The notes beneath the pieces are model-generated. The model saw only the letters and a program-made list of their open reading frames with translations, had not been told where the DNA came from and made no database searches. Positions 698-15,296 of a stretch of DNA of 64,000 nt are shown here, in pieces. The first letter of the stretch is position 1, and each line of letters begins with the position of its first letter. The position numbers and the translations under genes are program-made. Source of the stretch: an uncultured Methanosarcinales archaeon (GTDB taxonomy: Archaea > Nanobdellota > Nanobdellia > Woesearchaeales > GW2011-AR9); contig CAZWBB010000002.1 of NCBI GenBank assembly GCA_964632045.1, forward strand, positions 12,907-76,906, given 5' to 3'.

Positions 698-3622
698 GTG
701 CTTATGGTGGTTGAGGGAAGTGAAAAGAGAATTGATGAAGAGGATGAAATAGCTATTGATTTTTCTAAGATAAAAAAGAATCTGAGAAGTATTTTTAGTA
801 AAAGGAAAACCGGCCAGGAAGACAAGGGCCACCATTCAGACGAAGATACTAGTTCGGAAGATGATGTTTCAGTTGATATCACAAAAGCTACCTCTTTCGC
901 AAAGGAAAATGCAAAGTGGTTAATCCCTCTTCTATTCATCTTGCTGGCCATTGGAGTATCGACTTACTTCAGGATGATGCCCTCTCATCTGCCGATTACT
1001 GATGGCTGGGCAGAGAATACAGTCTCTGATTTCTATAGGAGCAACATTGTTAATCAAATTAACCAGCAATATCCGCACCTTCCAGAACAAAACCGTAATG
1101 TTCTCGTCCAGAAAGAGTGGGATAAGTTCCTGGAGCAGAATCAGGAACAGATTGACAGGGATATTAGTCAGCTGTCACAACAATATAAGACACAATTCCA
1201 GGATGAGAATGGAGATACATATCTTTTGGCGATTGATCCCTATCTTTGGTGGAGTCAGGCCAGGAATGTTGTCCGGCATGGACATCAGGGTGACAAGTTT
1301 GTTGATGGAGAATCTCGTTTCTCTTTACGTGACGGAAGGCTGGACAAAGGGTCCACTTTTCAATTGCATCCTTATTTTGCTGCTTACCTGTACAAGTTTC
1401 TTCGCATTTTTGACAGAAACATCTCCTTGATGCGAGCTTTGTTTCTGCTGCCAGCCATAATTATTGGCTTGTCGCTTATTCCAGCTTTCTTTATCGGACG
1501 TAGGATAAGCGGGAACGTTGGAGGTCTTTTTGCGGCAGTGTTCCTGGCTATCAACGGTCCACTGTTGAGCAGGACTCCTGCAGGATTTGCTGATACTGAT
1601 CCTTACAACATCCTGATGCCGCTGCTCATCTTCTGGCTTGCATTAGAAGCTTATTGCTCGGAAAAGAACGGCCTTCGATGGCTCTTATCAGCAGCTTCTG
1701 GGTTTCTGGTGGGCGTATATTCTGCCCTCTGGACCTATTCCTATATTTTCTTCTTCGTAATTATCACAATTGTTGGGAGTTTGTTCTTGTCGCTGCTTGT
1801 TACGTTGTACAAGACTAAATTCAAATTCAGTGTGAGCCTGATTAAGAGAATCGGTCTATGGGAAAGCATGTTAATTCTGATAACCTTTTTTGTTAGTTCC
1901 ACAGTTTTTGTCACTGTGTTCAGAGATTTTGCTGCTTTTCAGCGCAGTTTCAGCAGAATCATCCGTTTTACTGCTCTTAAAGAAGTGGGGATAAAAAATA
2001 TTTGGCCTAATGTCCTGACTACCGTCGCAGAGTTTAACACAAGCCCATTTTCTAGTATTGTTGATCAGATGGGCGGAAACCTCTTTTTTGTGATAGCTTT
2101 ATTGGGGGTTGTCATAGCTTTGTTCAGACGTGATAGGAAAGGGAGAAATGATTTTGCCTTTTTTTGTTTCTTAACCGTCTGGTTTGTAGGAAGTGCTTAT
2201 GCTTTTACCAAAGGGATGAGGTTTTCTATTTTGATGGCGCCACCTTTTGCTATCGCTCTTGGTTCGGCTTTTGGCTGGGCTTATGGAAAGCTGAGCCTTT
2301 GGATAAACAAAGGGGTCAAGCTTAATCTGCGTATCAGTCAAGCCCTGGTTATTGGAGTAATGGCCATGTTCTTGATAAGTCCTTTCACAACAGCTGGAGG
2401 GATTGCCAGGAATGAGGTTCCAACCATGAATGATGCCTGGTATGATGCCCTGATTAAGATACGTAATGATGGTACTGATGGGATAATCACAAGTTGGTGG
2501 GACTTTGGCCATTGGTTCCAGTCAATCTCAGAAAGGAGGGTCACTTTTGACGGTGGTGATCAAGGACAAAGGATTCACTGGGTTGGTCGTACTTTGCTTA
2601 CTGATGATGAGGCGCAGGCCGTGGGAATTCTGAGAATGCTCAACTGCGTCCAGGAGACAGCTCCAAAAAAATTGGATGAATTCACGGGGGACAGCTTGAA
2701 GTCGGTCCAGATACTCTACCAAGTTTTTCCGATCTCTGATAGAAGTAATGCATACCAGAAGTACAGAGAACTGGGATTAAGCAAAGAGCAAGCTGCCATT
2801 ATGCTTGATTACACCCACTGTGAGAATCTTATTCCAAATTATTACATCACTTCTGAGGATATGGTAGGTAAAGCAGGGGTGTGGGGTCATTTTGGCAGCT
2901 GGGACTTTGAGAAAGCTACTATGTATCAGACAACAAAGAAACTTCCCCGAGCCGAGGCTGTCGCTTACCTGACTGAAAATTTTGGGCTTACAGAGGAGCA
3001 AGCAGACAGCATTCACAATGAAATTCAAGCTACTAAAGGAGACCGGTGGATTGCTCCCTGGCCTGGATACGGTTCAGGTTTCAAAGGCTGTGAGAAGCTC
3101 TCTGATGAGGATATTCGGTGCGTAAATTTCCTGCAGGGCAAACCTATTTCCATTAGGATAAACCTGAATTCTATGACTGCTGAAGTGGAAGGGAGTCAGG
3201 GTATTGTTCCGGACACGTTGGTATATGCTACTTTGGAGGGTATGCAGAAGAAAGAACTGGAAGGGAAACATCTTGGAATCTCAGCAGTAATTGCACCAGC
3301 TGGAGACAGTTATAAGCTAATGCTGACTGACCCTTTACATGCAGCAGGAACATTTACAAAACTTTTCTTCCTGGAAGGGCATGGCATGAAATGTTTCAGT
3401 AAATTTGACGATCGCAGAGCAATCAATACTGGAAGAATAATCACCTGGAAGGTAGATTATGAATGTCAGCAGGGAAACAATGTTTTCTTCCAGGAACCTG
3501 AAACTGTACCAAGCATAGGAGAATCCAGGGATGAGACTACTGAACCTGAAGATGATCCGACTGGAATGGGGGATGAAACAACGGAACCTGGAGATGGTAC
3601 AACTGAAACTGGTATTCCATAA
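698..3622 (+). CDS. aglB: Oligosaccharyltransferase AglB (STT3 family)
   Basis: DPY motif in the first external loop, DTD, TVAE, multiple TM helices, WWDFG catalytic motif, DK-type motif (EDMVGK). Acidic N- and C-terminal tails. Confidence 0.95.
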   Translation: MLMVVEGSEKRIDEEDEIAIDFSKIKKNLRSIFSKRKTGQEDKGHHSDEDTSSEDDVSVDITKATSFAKENAKWLIPLLFILLAIGVSTYFRMMPSHLPITDGWAENTVSDFYRSNIVNQINQQYPHLPEQNRNVLVQKEWDKFLEQNQEQIDRDISQLSQQYKTQFQDENGDTYLLAIDPYLWWSQARNVVRHGHQGDKFVDGESRFSLRDGRLDKGSTFQLHPYFAAYLYKFLRIFDRNISLMRALFLLPAIIIGLSLIPAFFIGRRISGNVGGLFAAVFLAINGPLLSRTPAGFADTDPYNILMPLLIFWLALEAYCSEKNGLRWLLSAASGFLVGVYSALWTYSYIFFFVIITIVGSLFLSLLVTLYKTKFKFSVSLIKRIGLWESMLILITFFVSSTVFVTVFRDFAAFQRSFSRIIRFTALKEVGIKNIWPNVLTTVAEFNTSPFSSIVDQMGGNLFFVIALLGVVIALFRRDRKGRNDFAFFCFLTVWFVGSAYAFTKGMRFSILMAPPFAIALGSAFGWAYGKLSLWINKGVKLNLRISQALVIGVMAMFLISPFTTAGGIARNEVPTMNDAWYDALIKIRNDGTDGIITSWWDFGHWFQSISERRVTFDGGDQGQRIHWVGRTLLTDDEAQAVGILRMLNCVQETAPKKLDEFTGDSLKSVQILYQVFPISDRSNAYQKYRELGLSKEQAAIMLDYTHCENLIPNYYITSEDMVGKAGVWGHFGSWDFEKATMYQTTKKLPRAEAVAYLTENFGLTEEQADSIHNEIQATKGDRWIAPWPGYGSGFKGCEKLSDEDIRCVNFLQGKPISIRINLNSMTAEVEGSQGIVPDTLVYATLEGMQKKELEGKHLGISAVIAPAGDSYKLMLTDPLHAAGTFTKLFFLEGHGMKCFSKFDDRRAINTGRIITWKVDYECQQGNNVFFQEPETVPSIGESRDETTEPEDDPTGMGDETTEPGDGTTETGIP

Positions 3623-3659: not shown

Positions 3660-4313
3660 ATGAGTAATTATGTAATAATACCTGCCCATAATGAAAGTGA
3701 AAATATTGAGCCAGTTATCACAGCTGCAAAGGAACATTGTGCTAATGTTATCGTAGTTGATGATGGTTCCGTGGATGATACTTTAAGGAGAGCAGAAGAG
3801 AGAGGGGCGGTCGTATTGAGGCATACTGTAAACCTGGGCAAAGGGGCTGCTTTGAAAACAGGTTGTGACTATGCTCTAACATTGGGTGCGGATAAGTTGG
3901 TTGTGATGGATGCAGATGGGCAGCACGAGGCAAAGGAGATTCCAAAATTTCTGGAAGCTTTACAGAATAGGGATATTGTTTTTGGATATCGCAAAAAGTC
4001 AAGTTCAATGCCCTTAGTGCTAAGATTTGGAAATGGGTTCATAAATACTGCTATGAATTCCCTGTTTGGCGTTAAGCTAACAGATACACAATGTGGTTAC
4101 CGGGCTTTCACAGCCGATGCTTACAGAAAGGTTCGCTGGTCAGCAAGCGATTATTACATGGAAACAGAAATGATAATAAAGACAGGGAAGAATCATCTCA
4201 AATACGTTGAAATGCCAACTGAGACGATTTACTCTGACCGATACAAAGGAACAACCGTGATTGACGGGATGAAGATTGTTCTAAGCATTGCACTATGGAG
4301 GTTCTTCAAATGA
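3660..4313 (+). CDS. GT2 polyprenol-phosphate glycosyltransferase (DPM1-like)
   Basis: IPAHNE, VVDDGSVD, NLGKGAAL, MDADGQH, DTQCGYRA motifs. Confidence 0.92.
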   Translation: MSNYVIIPAHNESENIEPVITAAKEHCANVIVVDDGSVDDTLRRAEERGAVVLRHTVNLGKGAALKTGCDYALTLGADKLVVMDADGQHEAKEIPKFLEALQNRDIVFGYRKKSSSMPLVLRFGNGFINTAMNSLFGVKLTDTQCGYRAFTADAYRKVRWSASDYYMETEMIIKTGKNHLKYVEMPTETIYSDRYKGTTVIDGMKIVLSIALWRFFK

Positions 4314-4681
4314 GACTTAGCACTACATTTTGGATACAGCTTCTTGGAATGATATTTGGAGCAGGTATGATGTACTTTACTTATGTGAGGTATAAGAGGA
4401 AAGAGCTGAGCAATTTTGAATTGTTATTATGGTTCTCGGGGTGGGTTGCCCTTATCCTGGTGGCGATTATCCCTTCCATCCTTGATTTTGTCATCGAACC
4501 GCTGAATTTTTATCGAAGGCTTGACTTCTTTGTAGTCTTAGGATTTTTTGTTCTGCTACTACTGGGTTTCTATAATTATGGTTTGGTTAAAGGAATGGAG
4601 AAGAAACTGGAGAAGTTCGTTAGACGTGAGGCGATGAGAAGACATAGGGAAGAAGTGGAAAAAGAGCACGAAATACGATGA
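4310..4681 (+). CDS. DUF2304-like small membrane protein
   Basis: 3 TM helices plus a C-terminal helical tail; typical partner of GT2s. ATG 4310 overlaps the GT2 stop (ATGA), so I prefer it to 4295. Confidence 0.75.
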   Translation: MRLSTTFWIQLLGMIFGAGMMYFTYVRYKRKELSNFELLLWFSGWVALILVAIIPSILDFVIEPLNFYRRLDFFVVLGFFVLLLLGFYNYGLVKGMEKKLEKFVRREAMRRHREEVEKEHEIR

Positions 4682-5829
4682 AAATTCTTTTTATTTGCGA
4701 GAATTATCTCCCGCACTATGGTGGGGCGGAGGTGGTATTCAAGAACCTGGCGGAGAATTTCGTAAAGAAGGATCATAAGGTCTCTCTGATCACCCATCGC
4801 CTTAAAGGAACAAGAGAGAAAGAAAATATTGGGGGGGTAAATGTTCATCGAGTAAATTCGTTCTTTTCCCGTTACATCTTTACATTCTTCTCTATACCTA
4901 AAGCACTTAAGTTGGCTCGGCAGCACGATATAGTTCAGACTACCACATTCAACGGTGCTTTTCCTGCCTGGCTGGCGGCAAAGCTTACCGGTAAACCGGT
5001 AGTACTAACCGTTCATGAAGTATGGGTAGGAAAGTGGAAGCAGGTCACCGGCTTCAATTGGTGGAAGAGTATGATGCACGATCTGTTGGAGAGATGCATC
5101 TATATGCTACCATTTGATAAGTATGTGTGCGTTTCGAATGCGACTAGGAAAGATTTGGCCGGGGTTGGCATCTCCGGAGACCGGGCGGTCACCATACACA
5201 ACGGAATGGATTACCAAGTGTGGGATACAGCTAATTTTAAAGAAGAAAGAATAAAAGAGATTCGGACAAGACTGGGATTAAATGAAAAGTTTGTTTATTT
5301 CTCTTGGGGTCGGCCTGGTGCATCGAAAGGATTTGAGTATGTAATCAAGGCTGTGCCCATAATTAAGATGAAGCTGCCAAATTCGCTTTTTCTCTTAATG
5401 TTGGGCTCTGCAAACAAATACAAAAAGAAATATAATCAGTTGATTAGACTCGTTAAAGAATTAAGGTTGGATGACTCCATAAAAATTATTCCATCAGTTC
5501 CATATGGGGAATTGGGAAATTACCTTTCGGCCGTTGACTGCGTAGTGGTCCCTTCCGTAGCTGAGGGTTTTGGCTACACAACTGTAGAGGCAGTGACTAT
5601 GGGAAAACCGGTAGTAGCAAGCGACGCGGGATCTATTCCGGAAGTCATTGGTGGTAGACATCTTCTGTTCAGGAGTAAGGATGTAATTGGGCTTGCTGAT
5701 GGGGTTGTAAAAGCTGCAAAAGGGGAATGTCGTAAAACTGCCATCAAGCGTTTTGACTGGGAGACGAGTGTACAAAGATATTTGGACATATATTTGGATT
5801 TTTTTGGTAATAATTATGTAACTCAATAA
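4678..5829 (+). CDS. GT4 glycosyltransferase
   Basis: GGAE N-terminus, EGFGYTTVEAVTMGKPVVAS C-terminal motif. Confidence 0.93.
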   Translation: MKILFICENYLPHYGGAEVVFKNLAENFVKKDHKVSLITHRLKGTREKENIGGVNVHRVNSFFSRYIFTFFSIPKALKLARQHDIVQTTTFNGAFPAWLAAKLTGKPVVLTVHEVWVGKWKQVTGFNWWKSMMHDLLERCIYMLPFDKYVCVSNATRKDLAGVGISGDRAVTIHNGMDYQVWDTANFKEERIKEIRTRLGLNEKFVYFSWGRPGASKGFEYVIKAVPIIKMKLPNSLFLLMLGSANKYKKKYNQLIRLVKELRLDDSIKIIPSVPYGELGNYLSAVDCVVVPSVAEGFGYTTVEAVTMGKPVVASDAGSIPEVIGGRHLLFRSKDVIGLADGVVKAAKGECRKTAIKRFDWETSVQRYLDIYLDFFGNNYVTQ

Positions 5830-5885
5830 AAAATAGGTAATTAAGTATCATAAACATTATATACCATATTTGGGAATCCTACTTT

Positions 5886-7109
5886 ATGAATGTTCTTTTT
5901 GTATCCGAGTATTATCCTCCAAAGATAATGGGTGGTGGGGAAATTAACTTGTCTCTTCTAGCTAACTCTCTTGCAGCCAAAGGATTAACTGTTTCTGTGC
6001 TTACTTCTTTCCATAAGGGGTTGAACCGTTATGAAATGAAGAAGGGAGTGCATATTTACCGTAGGCTGAAGACGGGGGCACGTGCAGATGGAATAATTGA
6101 TAATCTGAAACGGAGTCTACTTTTTCCTCAATCAGTGGAAAGAGAAGTGAAGAGGCTTAATCAAGAGATCAAGTTTGATCTGGTACATTTCATTGGTACA
6201 AGCGTTATTGCGGCGGCTGGATTGAAGCAAATTCGGAAACCCTTCTGTGCAACCATTGAAAGTTATCCTTCTCTCTGTCCTAAGGGGGATCGGATATATT
6301 TTGGAAAAAGAGAATGCAGATTCATTTGCTCATTTTCCAGGTTCATAGGATGTCAGGCATCATCAACTGAAATAGGTAAGATGAAGAATAAGTGGTATTT
6401 GAAGTATAATCCTTTATTCCTGATGTTTGTATATCAATATTGTCGTAGGCTTAATTGTGCGTTAAAAGAATGTAACTTGATCGCCATAAGTGAATATGTA
6501 AAGAAAGTATTGCGGCAGCATGGTCTTTCCAGTATGGTGGTAGGTAATGCCATCAATGTGGGAAAGTTTCGACCAGATAAGAAGAAAGAGAGGGGGAATA
6601 AGCCGAAGGTAATCTATCTGGGAAGCATAACAAAGTTCAAAGGTCCTCAAATCCTGCTGAATGCAGTCCGTGGAATCGATTGCAGGTGCGACCTGTATGG
6701 GGAGGGAGAGATGAAAGAGGAGCTGCAAGGGATGATTGACAGATTTTGTCTTGATGCAGAGATTCATCCTCCCGTTCCTTATGAAAAAGTGCCTTGCCTA
6801 TACGCTGGAAGCGACATTGTCGTTTTCCCTTCGATATGGCCGGAACCGTTTGGCAGGATTGCTATAGAAGCGATAGCTGCTGGGAAGCCAGTGATTGGCT
6901 CTGCAATAGGGGGAATTAAGGAGACGATAGCTGCTAGTTCGGGTATCCTTGTAGCACCGGGAAATGTTGAAGAGTTAAGAAAGGCAATCATCGCGGCAAA
7001 TGAAGTGGCCCATAAAGATGGTGGGAAGTATGTAGAGCAGAGATATGGTGAGCAGGTAATCACCAAAAAAATAATTGGATTCTATGAGAAAATACTGAAT
7101 AGTGGATAG
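5886..7109 (+). CDS. GT4 glycosyltransferase
   Basis: MGGGE N-terminus, EPFGRIAIEAIAAGKPVI motif, Cys-rich insert (CPKG...C...C...C). Confidence 0.93.
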   Translation: MNVLFVSEYYPPKIMGGGEINLSLLANSLAAKGLTVSVLTSFHKGLNRYEMKKGVHIYRRLKTGARADGIIDNLKRSLLFPQSVEREVKRLNQEIKFDLVHFIGTSVIAAAGLKQIRKPFCATIESYPSLCPKGDRIYFGKRECRFICSFSRFIGCQASSTEIGKMKNKWYLKYNPLFLMFVYQYCRRLNCALKECNLIAISEYVKKVLRQHGLSSMVVGNAINVGKFRPDKKKERGNKPKVIYLGSITKFKGPQILLNAVRGIDCRCDLYGEGEMKEELQGMIDRFCLDAEIHPPVPYEKVPCLYAGSDIVVFPSIWPEPFGRIAIEAIAAGKPVIGSAIGGIKETIAASSGILVAPGNVEELRKAIIAANEVAHKDGGKYVEQRYGEQVITKKIIGFYEKILNSG

Positions 7110-7117
7110 CTCTCCCA

Positions 7118-8572
7118 TTAATCATCCTGTATCTTCATCTTCGGATTTCCGTAGGGGAGTAGTGGATTAAGCAATTGTAATTTCTGGTCCATGTAAGAAA
7201 TATCTTCCTGGCTGAAGTGTTCTTTATAACCTCCCACTATTCCACGTCTCATCTTGTAGCTCTGTCTATCATTTGGATCCACAGCTTGTAGTCGGTGGTC
7301 TCCTTTGAATCTATTTCCTTTCTCCATAGCCAGCATATTCTTGAATGAGCTGTTTTCAACGGCTTTGTCGATGATTTCGTCGCTTATTGATATCCCTAGA
7401 AAATCTACCACTTTCCGTAATTCACGGCTTGGGTCATTGTGCAAATCTTCGTAAGTGATAAAGACAAAATCATCTTTCCTTTTTTGCATCTCGGCAGTCC
7501 AGAGATTCATGAACCCGATTGCCTGCTTGAGTGTGGATTCTTCTCTAATAAAAGAGGAGATGCCTTTCTGATAACGAAAGTTACGTCGTCTAGTCCATTC
7601 AAAGTAGAATGAGGCCATCACATCGCGTGGGTCCCTGGCCAGAAAGATTATTTTCTTGTTCCTGAACTTTCTCTCGATCTCCAGAGATCTTGGTCTTAAC
7701 TTTTTGCTTATTGCAGTTCTGGGGTCGGTAGCAATGTTGGGAAGGGATTTATCTCCAAGAGTTGTCTTGTAAAGATCAAGGTTTAATTTTGTTCCTTTTT
7801 TGAGGGATATGGTCTGAGCCAGCAACATCCTTATCCAAGTTCGTCCACTTTTTGGGAAGGATATTATATATGCATCAGCAATTTTACTGACAGCATAGTG
7901 ATAGGATTTCTGAACCAGTGCGGCGGTTAATATGCGACTGCGAATTTTTCCAATGGTTTTATTGTTGACTGGAGTTGGGTTATCACTATGCCTTCCCCCA
8001 GACTTTTCATTATGTTTTTTGCTTACAGGTTTCCCGCTTGGGATGACCGTAGACTGATATTGCATGATGTGGGTAAGAATCTGTTGCACATTTTCCTCCT
8101 CTTTATTTGATAGTGTATCAATTTTCAAGTCTGGATTTAAAGGCATTTGGTAAGGATTACTTTCAGAAAGTCCGATGTAATTCTCGATTTCTCCCCTCAG
8201 AGCTTTCTTGTACAGCCCTTTTGGGTCTCTCCGGATACATTCTACTAGTGGGGTGTTTATGAACAGTTCGGTGAACTCTGTACCGATAATTGAACGAGCC
8301 ATCTGTCGGTCCTCTGTATAAGGAGAAATGATAGGGACCAGGATGACATCAAATTCAGCTGATTTTTCTTTTGCCATCTCAGCAATCAACTGGTTGTTCT
8401 TTCTAATATCCTCACGAGAGAATCCAAGAGTTGTATGTAATGTTTCCCTAACCACATCACCATCTATAATCGAAACTCTCTTTCCCTGGTTCTCCAGCCT
8501 TTCCTTCACTTGAAGAGCTAAGGTGGTTTTTCCTGAGCCACTGAGGCCCGTGAACCATACTGTTTGGCCTAT
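7118..8572 (-). CDS. APS kinase (CysC)-sulfotransferase fusion; start non-canonical (ATA 8572) or via readthrough
   Basis: The ORF-track start (GTG 8509) omits the in-frame P-loop GQTVWFTGLSGSGKTT at about 8569-8522. DGDVVR and RDPKGLY are CysC motifs. The C-terminal domain has the sulfotransferase PAPS-binding motifs FPKSGRTW, RDPRDVMAS and RRGIVG. Confidence 0.85.
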   Translation of the reverse strand: MGQTVWFTGLSGSGKTTLALQVKERLENQGKRVSIIDGDVVRETLHTTLGFSREDIRKNNQLIAEMAKEKSAEFDVILVPIISPYTEDRQMARSIIGTEFTELFINTPLVECIRRDPKGLYKKALRGEIENYIGLSESNPYQMPLNPDLKIDTLSNKEEENVQQILTHIMQYQSTVIPSGKPVSKKHNEKSGGRHSDNPTPVNNKTIGKIRSRILTAALVQKSYHYAVSKIADAYIISFPKSGRTWIRMLLAQTISLKKGTKLNLDLYKTTLGDKSLPNIATDPRTAISKKLRPRSLEIERKFRNKKIIFLARDPRDVMASFYFEWTRRRNFRYQKGISSFIREESTLKQAIGFMNLWTAEMQKRKDDFVFITYEDLHNDPSRELRKVVDFLGISISDEIIDKAVENSSFKNMLAMEKGNRFKGDHRLQAVDPNDRQSYKMRRGIVGGYKEHFSQEDISYMDQKLQLLNPLLPYGNPKMKIQDD

Positions 8573-8578
8573 CTTATG

Positions 8579-10828
8579 TCACCTCACAAACACTTCTTCT
8601 CCTTTTTTTATCGCTTCCACAATAATCTTTGATATCTCAGGATGCATGAACCACTCTGGTAGGAACTCTCCTTTGTTTAATGTTTCTCTTGCCTGGGTGC
8701 CGCTGATGTGCATCTTTTCAAGTTCCTCTCCCTCCTCTGTTTCCGGCCCATGGATGTATTCTTTCTTCTTGTTTGAATAGAATACATTGCCGAATCTTAC
8801 CGGTTTAATTCCTATCTCTGGGAACTTGTCAAATATCTGGTGGGAGGCATTAGGGTGGTAGTAGTTGCCCACTCCTGTATGGTCTCTCCCCACAATAAAA
8901 TGGCTGCAGCCAAAATTCTTCCGGCAAAGAGCTGTGAAAATTGCTTCTCTTGGCCCAGCATATCTGGAAAAAGTTGAGAAAGTGGCAAATACGACCTTGT
9001 TCTTAGGATAGATATCCTTCACCATTTTCTCATAACTTTGGATGATATACTTTGAATTGAAATCCCCAGATTTTTTCTTGCCGATTATCGGGTGGACGAA
9101 CAGCCCATCACAGTTCTCTTTTTCCATCGCCTGAAGCTGGATGAATTCGTGACCTTTGTGGATAACATTCCTCGTATGGAAACCAACTACTTTTACCCAC
9201 CCTCGGTCTTCAAAAAGTCTTCTTACTTGTTTTGGAGCAAGCTCATATTCTTTGTAGGAGGAATCGTTTCTTTTTAGCAGGTCAATCTTACCTCCTAACA
9301 AAACAGGCTTCATCTCTGTAACCATTTTGACTCCGGGATGGTTTTGATCATTGGTGCAATAGAGTTTGTTGGCCATCTCTGTTTTGTCGAAATGATACCT
9401 GTCTTCAACATGCATGATAGCCATGATTTTGTCATTCTCATCAGTAAGAGCCACATCATCACCAACAGAAACCTTCATCTCCTCGGTAATATCAAGCACT
9501 AAGGGGATGGGCCAGACAATCCCATTGCTTAACCTAAGTTCATCCAACACTCCTTGGAAATCATCTCTACACATAAATCCTTCTAGCGGGCTGAAAGTGC
9601 CGATGGCAATCTGTTCGATATCCATCAGTTGTTCTTTTGTTAACTGGATTTTTGGAAAGCTACCGATCCCTTCCGGTAATGAGCCGATGAACCTGTCTAT
9701 CAGTTTTCCTCCATGGGGTTCGATCAGCGAATCAGATTCAAGATCTTCAGAAAGATAGTTCATATTGTCAATGCCTTGGAGCAGTTTTGAATGTTCAATC
9801 AGCTTGTTCATCATATTTATGCATCTCATGGGATACTTGCCGATGGCGGTCTCTGCTGACAAGATGAGGCCATCCGCTCCATCTAGTATAGTATTGATTA
9901 CGTCGTTAACTTCTGCTCTTGTGGGTTTCTTCTGTTTAATCATAGTCTCAAGAAGATTAGTCGCTACGAAAACGGGTGTTCCACTTTCTTTAGCTTTCTT
10001 GAGGATGATTTTCTGAATGAGGGGTACTTTCTCTACAGGTACTTCCTTACTCAGATCGCCTCGATCTAACAGGATACTATCTGACTTCTTGATAATATTG
10101 TCAATATCCCTGAGCGAATCCCGTGCTTCTACTTTTGAGATGATGTGCATGGCATTATTGGTCACCCTTCTCACTTCATCAATATCTTCTCCTTTTCGGA
10201 CAAAGGATACAGCAATGTGGCCTACTCCTTCGCTCAGACCGATGCGGATGGATTCTTTATCTTTCTCTGAAAGAACAGGAAGCTGGAAGTTGCTCTTTGC
10301 CGCAGACACTATAACTGTTGCTTTTTTATTTCCAAGATTTCCACTGGAGACGATCCTAGCTTGGATATATCCCTCTTTGATTGTGGAAACGTCGGACACT
10401 TTGAATATCAAAGTATCAAAATCTACAAAAATCAGATCACCGGGTTTCAATTGCTGCAAAATTGGGGGGGGCGTTAGACAGATTTTCTCTTTGTTGCCAA
10501 TTATTGGTGTATTGTAAACTCGTACGACATTTCCTTCATCAAACTGAATCTCATTTTTCTCAAGACTACCAGTCCGAATTTGAGACCCTTCAGTGTCGAT
10601 AATGAAAGGTATATTTGCTGCTTTTGCAAGATGGATGAAATGTCTTAAGTCTTCGGTGGAAGAATGGGACATATTTATTCGTACAAAATCAACTCCTTTG
10701 TCCTTGATTTTCTTAATATCAGCTTCAATGCTGGTAGCTGGACCCAGAGTCACAATTATTTTTGGTGTCATTTCACTCTTTTTTTGTCTATTATGACGTA
10801 CCTCACTGCCTACAGTAGGATTTTTCAC
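8579..10828 (-). CDS. Pyruvate kinase (barrel + B domain)-ATP sulfurylase (Sat) fusion; start GTG 10828 or ATG 10771
   Basis: PK motifs KIIVTLGP, RINMSH, SKVE, RGDL, PTRAEVND, LSAETAIGKYP, then Sat motifs PHGGKL, HTRNVIHKGHE, YAGPREA, FIVGRDH, ISGTQAR, in one uninterrupted frame. Confidence 0.92.
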   Translation of the reverse strand: MKNPTVGSEVRHNRQKKSEMTPKIIVTLGPATSIEADIKKIKDKGVDFVRINMSHSSTEDLRHFIHLAKAANIPFIIDTEGSQIRTGSLEKNEIQFDEGNVVRVYNTPIIGNKEKICLTPPPILQQLKPGDLIFVDFDTLIFKVSDVSTIKEGYIQARIVSSGNLGNKKATVIVSAAKSNFQLPVLSEKDKESIRIGLSEGVGHIAVSFVRKGEDIDEVRRVTNNAMHIISKVEARDSLRDIDNIIKKSDSILLDRGDLSKEVPVEKVPLIQKIILKKAKESGTPVFVATNLLETMIKQKKPTRAEVNDVINTILDGADGLILSAETAIGKYPMRCINMMNKLIEHSKLLQGIDNMNYLSEDLESDSLIEPHGGKLIDRFIGSLPEGIGSFPKIQLTKEQLMDIEQIAIGTFSPLEGFMCRDDFQGVLDELRLSNGIVWPIPLVLDITEEMKVSVGDDVALTDENDKIMAIMHVEDRYHFDKTEMANKLYCTNDQNHPGVKMVTEMKPVLLGGKIDLLKRNDSSYKEYELAPKQVRRLFEDRGWVKVVGFHTRNVIHKGHEFIQLQAMEKENCDGLFVHPIIGKKKSGDFNSKYIIQSYEKMVKDIYPKNKVVFATFSTFSRYAGPREAIFTALCRKNFGCSHFIVGRDHTGVGNYYHPNASHQIFDKFPEIGIKPVRFGNVFYSNKKKEYIHGPETEEGEELEKMHISGTQARETLNKGEFLPEWFMHPEISKIIVEAIKKGEEVFVR

Positions 10829-11237: not shown

Positions 11238-11966
11238 ATGTTACCGACAATTAAGCAGATTCGTGAGAGTTCCAAGACACGACGTTAGGGTTATGAATAC
11301 GTTTTAGATTATTTCGCAAATTATATAGTTAGACTATCCTTATTTTTTGGGATTAGTCCAACAGAACTTAGCTTTTTCTGGGTATTTGCCCAATTCTTTT
11401 CATGTCTATTATTTCTTAAAGGAGATTATTATTATTCATTGTTTGGGATAATAATCTTTCAGTTCATGTTTATTGTGGATTTGTCTGATGGAAAACTTTT
11501 TAGATTCAGAAAGTCCGGCAAGACATATCTTAAGCCATTATTCCCAAAATACTTAGACCGTATGGGCCATTTTGTTAACAACCCGTTCCTATTCTTATGT
11601 CTAGGTTTTGGCTTACTTCATCACAGTCAAACAATTTTTTATTTTTCGCTAGTTGCAGCTTTTTTTTATTTATTGAACAAAGCACTCGCGCTGAATCCTT
11701 CCTGGTACAAATCTCAGGAAGAAAGAGAAATGATCTCTTTGTTAGGTAAATTTTCCAGTATTCGGGACGGAAAATCACTAATCAAAAAGTTGATTTTTGA
11801 TTTTATCAGGATTGAACACATGGGTAATCTTTTGTTTCTTTTGATATTATTTAATTTGGCACATTATGCTATTATGGCTTATGCAATTATTCATTCTTTA
11901 GAGTTTTTACGTAAATTAATCTCTCAAGGGGTTATCTTGTTTGAAGAAGACAAGAAGAGAGGATAA
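11238..11966 (+). pseudogene. CDP-alcohol phosphatidyltransferase-like gene interrupted by an in-frame TAG (11286-11288)
   Basis: Frame from ATG 11238 reads MLPTIKQIRESSKTRR*GYEYVLDYFANYIVRLSLFFGISPTELS... and continues into the 11439 ORF. DLSDGKLFR...YLDRMGH is a degenerate DxxDGxxAR...GxxxD motif. Region is visibly AT-rich. Confidence 0.7.
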
Positions 11967-12047: not shown

Positions 12048-12782
12048 GTGCTTTCTATGGGGCATATGCGAGTCCGAAAAGAAGAATTACATCAAATCAA
12101 TAAGATCAAGTACCAAAAGAATGGGATAATTGGGATAATCACTCGCAGATACCTTTCGACAAGGATCAGCTCTTGGTTGGCATCGACCTCAATTACGCCT
12201 AACCAAGTCACTTTTTTCTCTTTGCTCGTAGGATTGACGGGTGTGTGTTTTCTTTCAACGGGTGGAAGAGTAAATCTGGTTATCGCGGGTGTACTCATCT
12301 TCATTTCTAAAATATTTGATGCAGTTGATGGTGAACTTGCCCGCCTCAAGAAGATGGAGACTGCACGGGGAGCATGGCTTGACGGGATCTCAGACCGTTT
12401 CAAGGAGAACCTGATTTTTTTTGGAATTGCGCTGGGTCTGTACAACCAGACTGGTAATGTGGTTGTCTGGTATTACGCTTTTATCGCTATCATCTCCATT
12501 CACATGCTTTCGATAGTCCTGGAACACACGGGGCGGATGGACAAGAAGATTCTGCAGAAAACGCAGGAAGATACCCTATTGGTAAAATTGGCCAGGAAGC
12601 TGGGAATTAAGCCGCAGTTTCTTGCTCTGCAGGCTGATACTTATCTTTTCATTACCTACATAGCAATCATGCTTAACCAGCTGATGTTCATCCTCTGGTT
12701 CTTCATGATTGTGATGAATCTTTACTGGCTTACTATTGTGGTCCTTGTGTATTTAAAAGGAAGTGGGATTGGGGAAAGATGA
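12048..12782 (+). CDS. CDP-alcohol phosphatidyltransferase family protein (start may be ATG 12057 or 12066)
   Basis: ITPNQVT and an intact DAVDGELAR...GAWLDGISD motif; TM helices. Confidence 0.9.
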   Translation: MLSMGHMRVRKEELHQINKIKYQKNGIIGIITRRYLSTRISSWLASTSITPNQVTFFSLLVGLTGVCFLSTGGRVNLVIAGVLIFISKIFDAVDGELARLKKMETARGAWLDGISDRFKENLIFFGIALGLYNQTGNVVVWYYAFIAIISIHMLSIVLEHTGRMDKKILQKTQEDTLLVKLARKLGIKPQFLALQADTYLFITYIAIMLNQLMFILWFFMIVMNLYWLTIVVLVYLKGSGIGER

Positions 12783-12792
12783 TTGAACACAG

Positions 12793-13815
12793 ATGATGGA
12801 TATAAGAATTTTTTATAATGCGGATGTTGAAGAAAGGAAGTATGAAGGTAGGTCGCAAACTTCTTTACTGCTCAAAGAGTTTCTTGAGAAGAAAGGATTC
12901 GTTTTTGTAGATCACCCAGCTAAAGCAGATATTATTAATTTTCATAGCAGCGGGATATTTGATTCATTCAAAGCTGCTAAATTGAAGAAAAAATATGGGG
13001 TTCCAGTAGTGTACTCATTATACTCACTTTCAAAGACAGAGCCATTCAACCATTTCAGGAACCATCTTGCTCAAAGATATTTTCTTAGACCAAGGAAGAC
13101 CAGTTTTGTTCTTAGTTATTCGGCCATATTGCCTCTAAGGTTGAGGGGATTCCGGTTGAATGAACTGGATGCAGTAGTTACCCCTTCCAATTTTGTCAAG
13201 GAAAGGCTGCATAACAATGCTTGTCTGATCCGGATTGGTATTGACACCAAGAAGTTTCGTCCTCTGCCTCGTGATTCTTTAGATGGGGGGAAGAAGCTGA
13301 GGGTAGGGTATTTTGGTCATCCCAGTGCCTATAAAGGGGTTCTTGATTTTGCCCGTGCTACAAGGTTGTTTCCAAAGCATTATGAGAGTCATATTCATAT
13401 ATCCGATACTTCTGTAAAAATGATCAGAAATCTAAAGAAGATTAATCCCAGCTTGCAGGTGCATGGACATATAGAAGACATGGCACATGCCTACAACTGG
13501 ATGGATGTCATCGTTCTTCCATACAGAAGCCATTTGGCAGGAGTAGCCAATCCTCTTGTACTTATTGAGGCAATGGCTTGTGGTAAAGCCATAGTGACTA
13601 CTGATTTTGATTATCTGAAAGAGATTGTAAAAGGTTCTGCGCTTATCATCAAGCCCTACTCTCCTGTGAAAATTGCTAAGGCCGTATCAATATTTGAGGA
13701 TGGGAGCATCAGGCAGAGATTTGGGGAGAGAGCCAGGAAAATAATCCTGGATGAATTTTGCCAGGAAAAGATGTTTGAGGATTACCTCAGTTTGTATAGG
13801 GACCTTACCATATGA
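12793..13815 (+). CDS. GT4 glycosyltransferase
   Basis: YFGHPSAYKG and PLVLIEAMACGKAIV motifs. Confidence 0.88.
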   Translation: MMDIRIFYNADVEERKYEGRSQTSLLLKEFLEKKGFVFVDHPAKADIINFHSSGIFDSFKAAKLKKKYGVPVVYSLYSLSKTEPFNHFRNHLAQRYFLRPRKTSFVLSYSAILPLRLRGFRLNELDAVVTPSNFVKERLHNNACLIRIGIDTKKFRPLPRDSLDGGKKLRVGYFGHPSAYKGVLDFARATRLFPKHYESHIHISDTSVKMIRNLKKINPSLQVHGHIEDMAHAYNWMDVIVLPYRSHLAGVANPLVLIEAMACGKAIVTTDFDYLKEIVKGSALIIKPYSPVKIAKAVSIFEDGSIRQRFGERARKIILDEFCQEKMFEDYLSLYRDLTI

Positions 13816-15296
13816 AATATCTAAATGCTCCTCCAGAGATTATGCAGGTAATATCTTTATTTCACGAGAATAATCTCTCCTACAATCTTTTCAAGTGCGA
13901 ACATATTTTTGCAGGTATGAATAAGAACCTTGATATCTTGTTTGCAAACAGGAAAGATTATGACAAAGCTGCTCTTCTGCTTGAGGGAGCAGGGTTTGTT
14001 CTCTATCTTCCAGAGAAAGTTGAAAAATATAAAGAGATGTATGTCCGCTTTGACCATGGACAGCTAACCAGAATCCATCTGCACAGGGAGATTGCCTGGC
14101 ATGGTCTGAAAGTGATGGATAAAAAGCACATTTTTGCTGGAGCTAAAGAGAAGAGCAAGGGTATCTTTGTCCCTTCAGATGAGGACCAGTTGTTGATTCA
14201 TGTTGCACATGTGATTTTTGAGAACTGGGAAATCAGCGATTACATAAAGAAGTTGATGGTTGGTCTCATGCAAAAGGATCTTGATTGGGATTACATAAGA
14301 AGGAGATTGCAGGAGTACGGATGGAAAGGCGTTTTTTATTATGTGCTAAAGTGCGCTAAGAAAGATCGGCATACTAGGAGAGGGACTTTCTTGCAGTGCT
14401 TTGTTCAAAGGGCCCTGCGAAGTCCTGTCAGCTGGCCCACTTTGTCAAAGAAATTCATTGATATCATTTTACGGAAGATCAGTTTGAGGAGGAAAGGGTG
14501 TTTGATAGCTTTGATTGGAGTCAATGGGAGTGGAAAAACGACGTTGGCAGGAGAAGTCTTGAAATCGTATCATCCACTGACTAAGCATTTTGGTGGGCAA
14601 ACAGGTTACTATTTTGGATGGTATCCCTTTTCATTTATCTCAAAATTGATTTCATCGCTTCTCAGAAAAAGTAACCGTAGGCTCTTTGAAGAGATGAACA
14701 AGGACAAAGAGGGTCAGGAGATGGATTCTACCAGGAAACAAAAGTTTAGTGTATTCCATGAATCAGTTCTATTTTACAATTATTTTGAGTATATGCTTCG
14801 GTTCTTCCTGCAAATTTATCCAAAATTGAGGGCAGGGGGGCTTGTTGTCACAGACAGATATTTCTATGACGTTTACGGACAATATAATTATTCACAGAAG
14901 AGTATTATCATCGGGACATTACTGCGTTTTTTCCCCAGGCCTGATTTTGTTTATGTGCTTGATGCTCCATTGGGGGTCATTTCTGGGAGGGCAAAAGAAC
15001 CAAATGTTTTGGAAAAGAAATGTGAAAGGGGGATAGATGTTGACGAAACTAATGTTGTTCCTGCTGAGAATAGAGTAATCAAGTCTAGAAAATATCTGGT
15101 GGGGCAGAGGAAGAGGTATCTTGAACTGCATGATCGGCTGAACAAAATGGTCGGTGATTCAAAACTGAATACAGAATCAAGATTGACTTTGTATTCAGAA
15201 TTATTAAATACTGATTGTGGTATTGAACATTCGGTAACGACAGTTATTAATTCGAGCTGGAAGTCGCTGGTGCAAAAGAAGAACTGTGGGGGATGA
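13812..15296 (+). CDS. Nucleotidyltransferase-fold + thymidylate-kinase-like P-loop fusion (copy 1)
   Basis: N-terminal KNLDILF...IHLH...PSDEDQLLIHVAH; C-terminal LIGVNGSGKTT, TDRY, PRPDFVYVLDAP. Confidence 0.7.
   Translation: MKYLNAPPEIMQVISLFHENNLSYNLFKCEHIFAGMNKNLDILFANRKDYDKAALLLEGAGFVLYLPEKVEKYKEMYVRFDHGQLTRIHLHREIAWHGLKVMDKKHIFAGAKEKSKGIFVPSDEDQLLIHVAHVIFENWEISDYIKKLMVGLMQKDLDWDYIRRRLQEYGWKGVFYYVLKCAKKDRHTRRGTFLQCFVQRALRSPVSWPTLSKKFIDIILRKISLRRKGCLIALIGVNGSGKTTLAGEVLKSYHPLTKHFGGQTGYYFGWYPFSFISKLISSLLRKSNRRLFEEMNKDKEGQEMDSTRKQKFSVFHESVLFYNYFEYMLRFFLQIYPKLRAGGLVVTDRYFYDVYGQYNYSQKSIIIGTLLRFFPRPDFVYVLDAPLGVISGRAKEPNVLEKKCERGIDVDETNVVPAENRVIKSRKYLVGQRKRYLELHDRLNKMVGDSKLNTESRLTLYSELLNTDCGIEHSVTTVINSSWKSLVQKKNCGG

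Follow-up and report, generated by a model that had tools for sequence, protein, structure and literature searches.

What does a frame that joins an adenosine 5'-phosphosulfate (APS) kinase to a sulfotransferase make in an archaeon, and is a glycan what its product sulfates? The question is raised by a locus in the genome of an uncultured archaeon, within a stretch of 64,000 nucleotides that was analysed whole and is called the window here (contig CAZWBB010000002.1, positions 12,907 to 76,906). In it, an APS kinase (CysC) domain, a linker and a sulfotransferase domain follow one another in a minus-strand frame, directly behind a gene for a protein with a pyruvate kinase barrel and an ATP sulfurylase domain (PK-Sat), and glycosyltransferase genes lie around both. 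We consider it moderately probable that this is a young fusion of one lineage, produced by the insertion of a cassette, and that it is translated from an AUA codon into a CysC-sulfotransferase protein which sulfates the glycan of the cluster.

Traced upstream from its end at 7118, the minus-strand frame meets no stop before the TGA (8579-8581) of the upstream gene. Read from 8578, it contains two Pfam domains, APS_kinase (E 1.3e-48, residues 4-154) and Sulfotransfer_1 (E 7.5e-30, residues 235-466). The kinase part matched PF01583 with 165.3 bits (cut-off 21.1) and the NCBIfam model TIGR00455 (apsK) with 172.2 bits (cut-off 138.7), and its nearest solved structures are archaeal and bacterial APS kinases, with 2yvu as the best match in the PDB (E 7.9e-39). 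The sulfotransferase part matched PF00685 with 104.6 bits (cut-off 22), and the AlphaFold model of this domain had a predicted local distance difference test score (pLDDT) of 93.4 and a predicted template-modelling score (pTM) of 0.91. The linker between them is rich in Ser, Pro, Lys, Asn and Gly and ends at the point where standalone sulfotransferase orthologues start; residues 179-204 had a pLDDT below 50 and no secondary structure in the full-length model. That model contained two well-folded domains, and its pTM of 0.55 means that their mutual placement is not confident. It was built only on the alignment of 18 close sequences (A4), which makes the missing interface weak evidence; the full-length alignments A2 and A5 were discarded, having been misaligned where the P-loop of one domain was drawn to that of the other. 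The claim of the sequence-only reading that CysC, a low-complexity linker and a sulfotransferase share one frame was borne out by Pfam, TIGR00455 and the AlphaFold model.

No ATG, GTG or TTG occurs in frame between the TGA and the GTG at 8509. The open reading frame (ORF) with a common start codon is 7118..8509 (463 amino acids), and it lacks the P-loop GLSGSGKT (8525-8548) of the kinase; the public gene calls found have this form and thus remove the P-loop. Without a canonical start before the P-loop, a two-domain protein that includes it is made only if the ATA at 8572 initiates, or if the TGA is read through. The start given earlier, 8572, is this ATA. The junction reads ...GTG AGG TGA CAT AAG ATA GGC..., with the CysC frame directly behind the PK-Sat stop and in the same frame. 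Same-frame gene junctions elsewhere in the genome resemble GAGGTAAnnnnnATG or GAGGTAA-nnnnn-ATG, and the junction here has that genome-typical form but carries ATA in the position of ATG, which is strongly enriched and by far the commonest codon 6-11 nt behind Shine-Dalgarno-like motifs in this genome (107 cases). The junction is the same in a second assembly (an ENA contig, different at 2 of 3060 bases), and an assembly error at the TGA was ruled out on this ground, the two assemblies perhaps not being fully independent samples. On these sequence features, the start is read as Shine-Dalgarno-directed, termination-coupled initiation at AUA, possibly a mutated AUG. A promoter and terminator scan was uninformative for an archaeon.

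Two other accounts of the junction have to be weighed. The kinase part may no longer be made: the start would have been lost, GTG 8509 would be used, and a kinase remnant without its P-loop would be attached to a working sulfotransferase, which would receive its 3'-phosphoadenosine 5'-phosphosulfate (PAPS) from a second CysC encoded on contig C5. The fusion would then be a decaying by-product of the cassette insertion, and its product would not contain the stretch GQTVWFTGLSGSGK. The lack of a common start codon before the P-loop, the choice of the 463-residue form by gene callers, the canonical CysC (DREEN) amid sulfotransferase-like genes on C5 and the standalone state of orthologous sulfotransferases in other genomes are all as this account expects. 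However, the 21 codons from ATA to GTG 8509 match the CysC family consensus nearly perfectly, P-loop included, and contain no stop or frameshift (a very recent loss would still allow this); a Shine-Dalgarno-like motif of 7 nt is well spaced from the ATA, and on inspection of the sequence no such motif was seen just upstream of GTG 8509; and the remainder of the kinase domain is intact. Loss of the kinase is judged unlikely.

The other account is that the UGA at 8579-8581 is partly read through, so that a PK-PUA-Sat-CysC-sulfotransferase polypeptide of about 1236 residues, a complete sulfate-to-sulfated-product enzyme, would be made alongside the shorter PK-Sat. The two frames are indeed the same across a single TGA. 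In-frame PK-Sat-CysC fusions are present in two related genomes, G037 (913 amino acids) and G024 (at least 870 amino acids), and the junction in G037 is of exactly the same length as in the window (VFV, 9 residues, then W). C is the nucleotide after the stop, and UGA-C is a leaky stop context in the organisms studied. In contrast, TGA closes 651 of 1504 long ORFs and is the genome's most frequent stop, and it is not in excess among same-frame ORF pairs split by one stop (30 TGA, 35 TAG, 29 TAA). No selenocysteine or suppressor tRNA was found by aragorn, which detected just 20 tRNAs in the incomplete assembly, no readthrough-promoting RNA structure was detected around the UGA (z 0.02), and the Shine-Dalgarno-like motif overlapping the stop points to a junction of two genes. 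Given the frequency of TGA as a stop, the lack of an excess of TGA-split pairs and the lack of such tRNAs, a genome-wide recoding of TGA or its use for selenocysteine was ruled out. Partial readthrough at this one site appears very improbable; Sat and the kinase do not lie in one chain, the TGA, a normal stop in this genome, separating their frames.

If AUA initiation does deliver the kinase domain, its active site has to be considered. The motifs IDGDVVR (DGDxxR type) and RDPKGLYKKA (the lid) are present and align with those of 2yvu and 4bzq. The canonical DRxEN motif, whose Arg contacts APS in the enzymes of P. chrysogenum and human, is replaced by DIRKNNQL, in which neither this Arg nor the RR that follows was found. 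The substitution had been pointed out as a caveat, and it is at 8396-8410 as described, yet it is no peculiar defect but the hallmark of a large CysC subfamily: D-[I/V/L]-x-x-N was read in 59 of the 133 CysC-bearing proteins fetched, with a next residue that is often, not always, basic. Members occur as standalone proteins and as CysC-CysQ, Sat-CysC, PK-CysC and PK-Sat-CysC forms, and are also linked to sulfotransferases; the subfamily retains the P-loop, DGDxxR, ISPY and the KGLYKKA lid. The variant CysC was the sole APS kinase homologue found with this query in four relatives (G002, G010, G015 and G024), all of which have sulfotransferase genes, and this suggests, as far as gene content can, that the subfamily is active. 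Judged by source names, the Arg-less proteins (among them P0012-P0044 and P0127-P0250) come mostly from small archaea and candidate-phyla bacteria, and fusion to CysQ-like, Sat or pyruvate kinase domains is frequent among them.

The sulfotransferase has both of the PAPS-binding motifs reported for it, with key residues that show no or almost no variation across 96 homologues. In structure comparison with VIA-align, the domain scored Z 19.7 to mSULT3A1 (7v1o) and 19.6 to 2z5f, and the best Foldseek matches were SULT1E1 (template-modelling score, TM, about 0.62) and SULT2 enzymes. The alignment column of the catalytic His contains His in 81 of the 96 homologues. In the clade of 10 to which the window's domain belongs, this column holds the Pro of a TDPR motif that is strictly conserved and usually continues as xGNY; the domain here reads TDPRTAIS. 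A shift of one residue in this gapped stretch would put the Asp at the His position, and the model of the domain has its lowest confidence in the loop after TDPR. The clade is supported (SH-aLRT 95) in a tree that was a quick maximum-likelihood tree with support by the Shimodaira-Hasegawa-like approximate likelihood-ratio test (SH-aLRT), and the other nine members are all standalone proteins. In other sulfotransferases an acidic residue is known to serve as the catalytic base, for example the Glu of heparan-sulfate 3-OST and NST, and Asp283 is for this reason a reasonable candidate for the catalytic base, by analogy with these enzymes.

The relatives of the sulfotransferase indicate how the fusion came about. 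The order of the second GT4 glycosyltransferase gene (GT4b), a convergent sulfotransferase gene, and then genes for a CDP-alcohol transferase, a third GT4 protein (GT4c) and an NTP_transf_5/TMK-like protein recurs in three other contexts: L020, a Logan contig (sulfotransferase 60% identical to the window's), L017 of genome G015 (56%) and L028, a JGI contig (54%). DUF2304 and GT4a genes are also kept in L020 and L028, and a GT2 gene in L020. The neighbouring proteins in these three are 38-69% identical to those of the window, and 48-66% in the GT2-DUF2304-GT4a-GT4b set. In all three, the sulfotransferase is standalone, with about 270 codons, and CysC and PK-Sat are absent. The cassette, in turn, exists by itself: besides the in-frame PK-Sat-CysC fusions mentioned above, genome G002 has PK-Sat and CysC as two genes with an ATGA overlap and a sulfotransferase gene 1.1 kb downstream, and sulfotransferase, CysC and PK-Sat are three separate genes in L021 and L022. 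A standalone sulfotransferase at a conserved position and an independent cassette in relatives argue for insertion of the cassette ahead of a resident sulfotransferase gene, after which the frames merged. The CysC-sulfotransferase fusion was absent from 40 related genomes, and a scan of metagenomes with a segment spanning the linker found only a standalone sulfotransferase. The fusion is thus real but young, limited to one lineage and loosely tethered.

The position between glycosyltransferase genes also bears on the acceptor. The location of the fusion beside PK-Sat and inside a glycan locus that contains AglB agreed with the Pfam matches of the neighbours. Glycan sulfation is plausible on the basis of the conserved gene order. 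Of the earlier proposal of a sulfated archaeal glycan, the link to a glycan was supported by the gene order in the three other genomes; specificity for an N-glycan was not, AglB not adjoining the cluster in L020 and the fold being closest to small-molecule cytosolic SULTs. No STT3 gene was found on the 11.7-kb L020 contig, the closest syntenic one. The acceptor could also be other than a glycan: the head group of a lipid, for example, a small metabolite, or a polyol-phosphate unit made through the CDP-alcohol transferase genes nearby. Cytosolic SULTs that act on small molecules are the nearest structures (Z 18-20), and heparan-sulfate, tyrosylprotein and mycobacterial (glycolipid) sulfotransferases score lower (Z 9-13). 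The trio of sulfotransferase, CysC and PK-Sat genes in L021 (7063-11212) and L022 (7382-11151), from a Nanoarchaeia-labelled genome, lies amid genes for ribosomal proteins and pseudouridine synthases and not in a glycan cluster, and unrelated fusions of CysC and sulfotransferase adjoin genes typical of secondary metabolism. However, the place of the sulfotransferase gene between glycosyltransferase genes is kept in four genomes, a fifth context, L023, is likewise a sugar cluster, and the acceptor is not predictable from similarity of fold. A non-glycan acceptor is accordingly regarded as quite unlikely.

Is the PAPS meant for sulfation at all? The genome (89% complete) has one ATP sulfurylase, that of PK-Sat. 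A profile search of it gave only a partial match to PAPS_reduct and no match to NIR_SIR (sulfite reductase) or SulP. With a single Sat, and with no sulfite reductase or full PAPS reductase found, PAPS probably serves sulfation and not sulfur assimilation. The second CysC, the canonical one on contig C5, is flanked by three sulfotransferase-like genes and accompanied by glycosyltransferase genes and a UDP-glucose dehydrogenase gene. Sulfated surface sugars seem to be a large investment for this archaeon.

In the glycan-sulfation mechanism that we propose, a PK-Sat/CysC cassette would have been inserted upstream of a sulfotransferase gene already fixed in a conserved glycan-assembly cluster, and the CysC frame would then have been extended through the spacer into that gene. 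Initiation at AUA 8572 would be directed by the Shine-Dalgarno motif and coupled with the end of PK-Sat translation at the UGA, which lies 6 nt upstream. PK-Sat would produce APS, the CysC domain of the DI(R/K)xN subfamily would phosphorylate it to PAPS, and the tethered soluble SULT-like domain, with the acidic residue of TDPR probably standing in for the missing catalytic His, would sulfate a sugar of the glycan built by the products of the neighbouring GT2/GT4 genes. Sulfation would take place on the cytoplasmic side, with a lipid-linked or nucleotide-activated precursor as acceptor. Nowhere in the fusion was a hydrophobic stretch of membrane-helix length found, which fits cytoplasmic action on such a sugar. 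What the fusion would provide is proximity and a fixed stoichiometry, not a structured channel. The direct hand-off of PAPS from CysC to the sulfotransferase that the sequence-only reading had envisaged found no support: the fusion occurs in one lineage only, the linker is predicted to be disordered, the pTM of the whole is 0.55, and the genome has a second, canonical CysC.

Several observations weigh against this mechanism. As to the junction, systems studied so far initiate only weakly at AUA, and no clear second ATA start was found in this genome, the scan behind strong Shine-Dalgarno motifs being too noisy; the ATA may even have arisen by a recent ATG-to-ATA mutation, with synthesis of the kinase part lowered or abolished as a result. 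Both catalytic domains depart from their families, the kinase lacking the APS-contacting Arg and the sulfotransferase the catalytic His (this second loss was not noticed in the earlier description), and no assay of any member of the DIRKN-type CysC or TDPR sulfotransferase groups was found in the literature. The fold of the sulfotransferase is nearest to that of small-molecule cytosolic enzymes. The fusion has been seen in one population only, and the canonical CysC on C5 could supply PAPS, so that the fused kinase is not strictly needed.

A more tentative possibility, rather doubtful at present, is that the Arg-less CysC, the His-less TDPR sulfotransferase with an acidic base and the junction with AUA behind UGA are three variants that act together in small archaea and candidate-phyla bacteria. 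If this were true, the TDPR clade would represent the first glycan sulfotransferases of archaea to be identified, and the junction would set a low ratio of CysC-sulfotransferase to PK-Sat by weak reinitiation or readthrough.

The features of the window on which the above is based are listed in the table.

Table. Features of the CysC-sulfotransferase locus, in coordinates of the window
Feature	Position	Strand	Description and basis
CysC-linker-sulfotransferase frame	7118..8572	-	484 codons from ATA, and stop; ORF listing with table-11 starts
GAGGTGA, Shine-Dalgarno-like heptamer	8579..8585	-	Includes the TGA stop (8579-8581) of the PK-Sat gene
ATA	8570..8572	-	Sole table-11 start codon that retains the P-loop; 6 nt past the Shine-Dalgarno-like motif
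GTG	8507..8509	-	First canonical start; downstream of the P-loop; chosen in public gene calls (463 amino acids)
APS kinase (CysC) domain	8072..8569	-	Residues 2-167; PF01583, TIGR00455, PDB 2yvu
Kinase P-loop GLSGSGKT	8525..8548	-	Same motif in relatives; encoded upstream of the first ATG/GTG/TTG
DIRKN instead of canonical DRxEN	8396..8410	-	APS-binding Arg replaced by Ile; alignments
Low-complexity linker	7961..8059	-	Residues 172-204 (33 residues), YQSTVIPSGKPVSKKHNEK...PVNN
SULT-like sulfotransferase domain	7121..7960	-	Residues 205-484; PF00685, AlphaFold, structure comparison
5'-phosphosulfate-binding loop PKSGRTW	7835..7855	-	K37, G39 and T41 invariant in alignment A1; in A3 G39 and T41 invariant, K37 nearly so; G39 and T41 invariant in 96 homologues
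TDPR motif	7718..7729	-	At the position of the family's catalytic His; directly after the strand at domain residues 76-78 (model)
3'-phosphate-binding motif RDPRDVMAS	7610..7636	-	R109 and S117 invariant in 96 homologues
RRGIVGGYK (RKGxxGxxK type, 3'-phosphate binding)	7223..7249	-	R238 invariant in 96 homologues
Upstream gene: pyruvate kinase barrel, PUA_2 and ATP sulfurylase	8579..10828	-	749 amino acids; the only Sat of the genome
AglB/STT3	698..3622		GT2, DUF2304 and two GT4 genes next; Pfam
GT2, DUF2304, GT4a, GT4b	3660..7109	+	Convergent on the sulfotransferase; order kept with the sulfotransferase in other genomes
CDP-alcohol transferase, GT4c, NTP_transf_5/TMK-like	12048..15296	+	Flank the sulfotransferase directly in syntenic genomes

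Some further genes of this genome were noted. Between PK-Sat and the CDP-alcohol transferase gene, orf175 (11439-11966, plus strand) encodes a hydrophobic protein without a Pfam match; a homologue 34% identical to it lies about 1.5 kb past the sulfotransferase in the PK-Sat/CysC/sulfotransferase gene group of G002, and orf175 may belong to the sulfation cassette, in which it could, for instance, be a membrane component. Four Inositol_P-family genes are present, one at C2:79626-80366, 2.7 kb beyond the end of the window, and the rest on three other contigs. They are candidates for phosphatases of 3'-phosphoadenosine 5'-phosphate, clearing this by-product of sulfation, and relatives fuse the domain to CysC. 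The second sulfation locus, at about 31000-38500 of C5 (L026:4067-12420), contains genes for a GT4 protein and a Sulfotransfer_1 protein (311 amino acids) and, later, GT2 and GT4 genes; two short Sulfotransfer_3-like genes (272 and 255 amino acids) flank the canonical CysC (197 amino acids), with UDP-glucose dehydrogenase and epimerase genes upstream. A 661-residue fusion of GT2 with a radical SAM/SPASM domain is encoded amid this locus (L026:6063-8048), and a weak STT3 paralogue at C5:15020-16081.

Among known systems, the bifunctional PAPS synthases (human PAPSS1/2, 1x6v, and that of Aquifex aeolicus, 2gks) likewise hold consecutive enzymes of the sulfation pathway in one gene, and their kinases are homologous to that of the window (E 4e-31 for 1x6v and 4.5e-29 for 2gks). 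Relatives of this archaeon come near to them in having PK-Sat-CysC in one frame. In contrast, the kinase of the window is joined to a consumer of PAPS, the sulfotransferase; only readthrough of the TGA would join it to Sat. It belongs, moreover, to the subfamily without the DRxEN Arg. The cytosolic SULT1/2/3 enzymes (1aqu, 3f3y, 7v1o) have the same fold as the sulfotransferase domain (Z 19.7, root-mean-square deviation 3.6 over 237 residues; Foldseek TM about 0.62), share its PAPS-binding motifs, and are soluble and of about 270 residues. Unlike them, the window's domain, about 20% identical, has TDPR for His, is fused to a kinase and lies in a glycan cluster. The Arg-less APS kinases and the His-less SULT-like enzymes are two large groups in which annotation by homology may miss catalytic differences.

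Other fusions of APS_kinase and Sulfotransfer_1 were also found in metagenomes: P0145 (422 amino acids), P0169 and P0045 (about 479 amino acids) and, with the domains in reversed order, P0151 (445 amino acids). They are 28-38% identical to the window's protein, their sulfotransferase domains fall far outside its clade, and the kinase is canonical where checked (DRTTH in P0045). Their neighbours are genes for AMP-binding and radical SAM enzymes, a CMP-sugar cluster, or genes for MbtH and NusG; P0169 lies in a sugar-nucleotide cluster. The low identity, the distant placement of the sulfotransferases and the different neighbours indicate that, as judged from sequence comparison, the architecture arose several times and the other fusions are independent events. 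In a bacterial metagenome-assembled genome, the gene for P0151 (L025:396-2537) is immediately preceded by MbtH-like and NusG-like genes. P0026 has a precomputed Sulfotransfer_2 match, yet only APS_kinase was found in it by Pfam at E 1e-6, and it was not counted as a confirmed fusion. In cyanobacterial toxin clusters, an APS kinase and a sulfotransferase are encoded by separate genes (CyrN/CyrJ and SxtO/SxtN) and the acceptors are small molecules. These systems resemble the present one in having a private PAPS supply beside the sulfotransferase but are bacterial.

No study of APS kinase-sulfotransferase fusions or of DPANN sulfotransferases was found in the literature. Of archaeal systems, the nearest in function is that of Haloferax volcanii, where an Agl7-dependent sulfation of dolichol-phosphate-bound hexose occurs at the lipid-linked stage of the N-glycosylation pathway; Agl7 is a genetic link only, and its enzymology is undefined (PMC3892788). 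The genome of Hfx. volcanii, used as a control, gave no match to Sulfotransfer_1, and on this basis the Agl7 system is probably not homologous to the sulfotransferase of the window. According to a review of 2024, archaeal sulfotransferases are uncharacterised, the candidates in Pacearchaeota and Woesearchaeota (DPANN) included (PMC11625862). Against this background, the fusion itself adds little mechanistically: the use of PAPS by sulfotransferases is known, the tether is predicted to be disordered, and the arrangement occurs in one lineage. New beyond the earlier description are the in-frame TGA/ATA junction, the recent origin by insertion of a cassette, and the pairing of a His-less sulfotransferase with an Arg-less kinase. 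Sulfated glycans are known on archaeal surface proteins, and no archaeal sulfotransferase has been shown to work; the locus provides a concrete candidate for one, namely a soluble sulfotransferase whose place in a glycan cluster is fixed across at least four genomes and which is here tied to a supply of PAPS.

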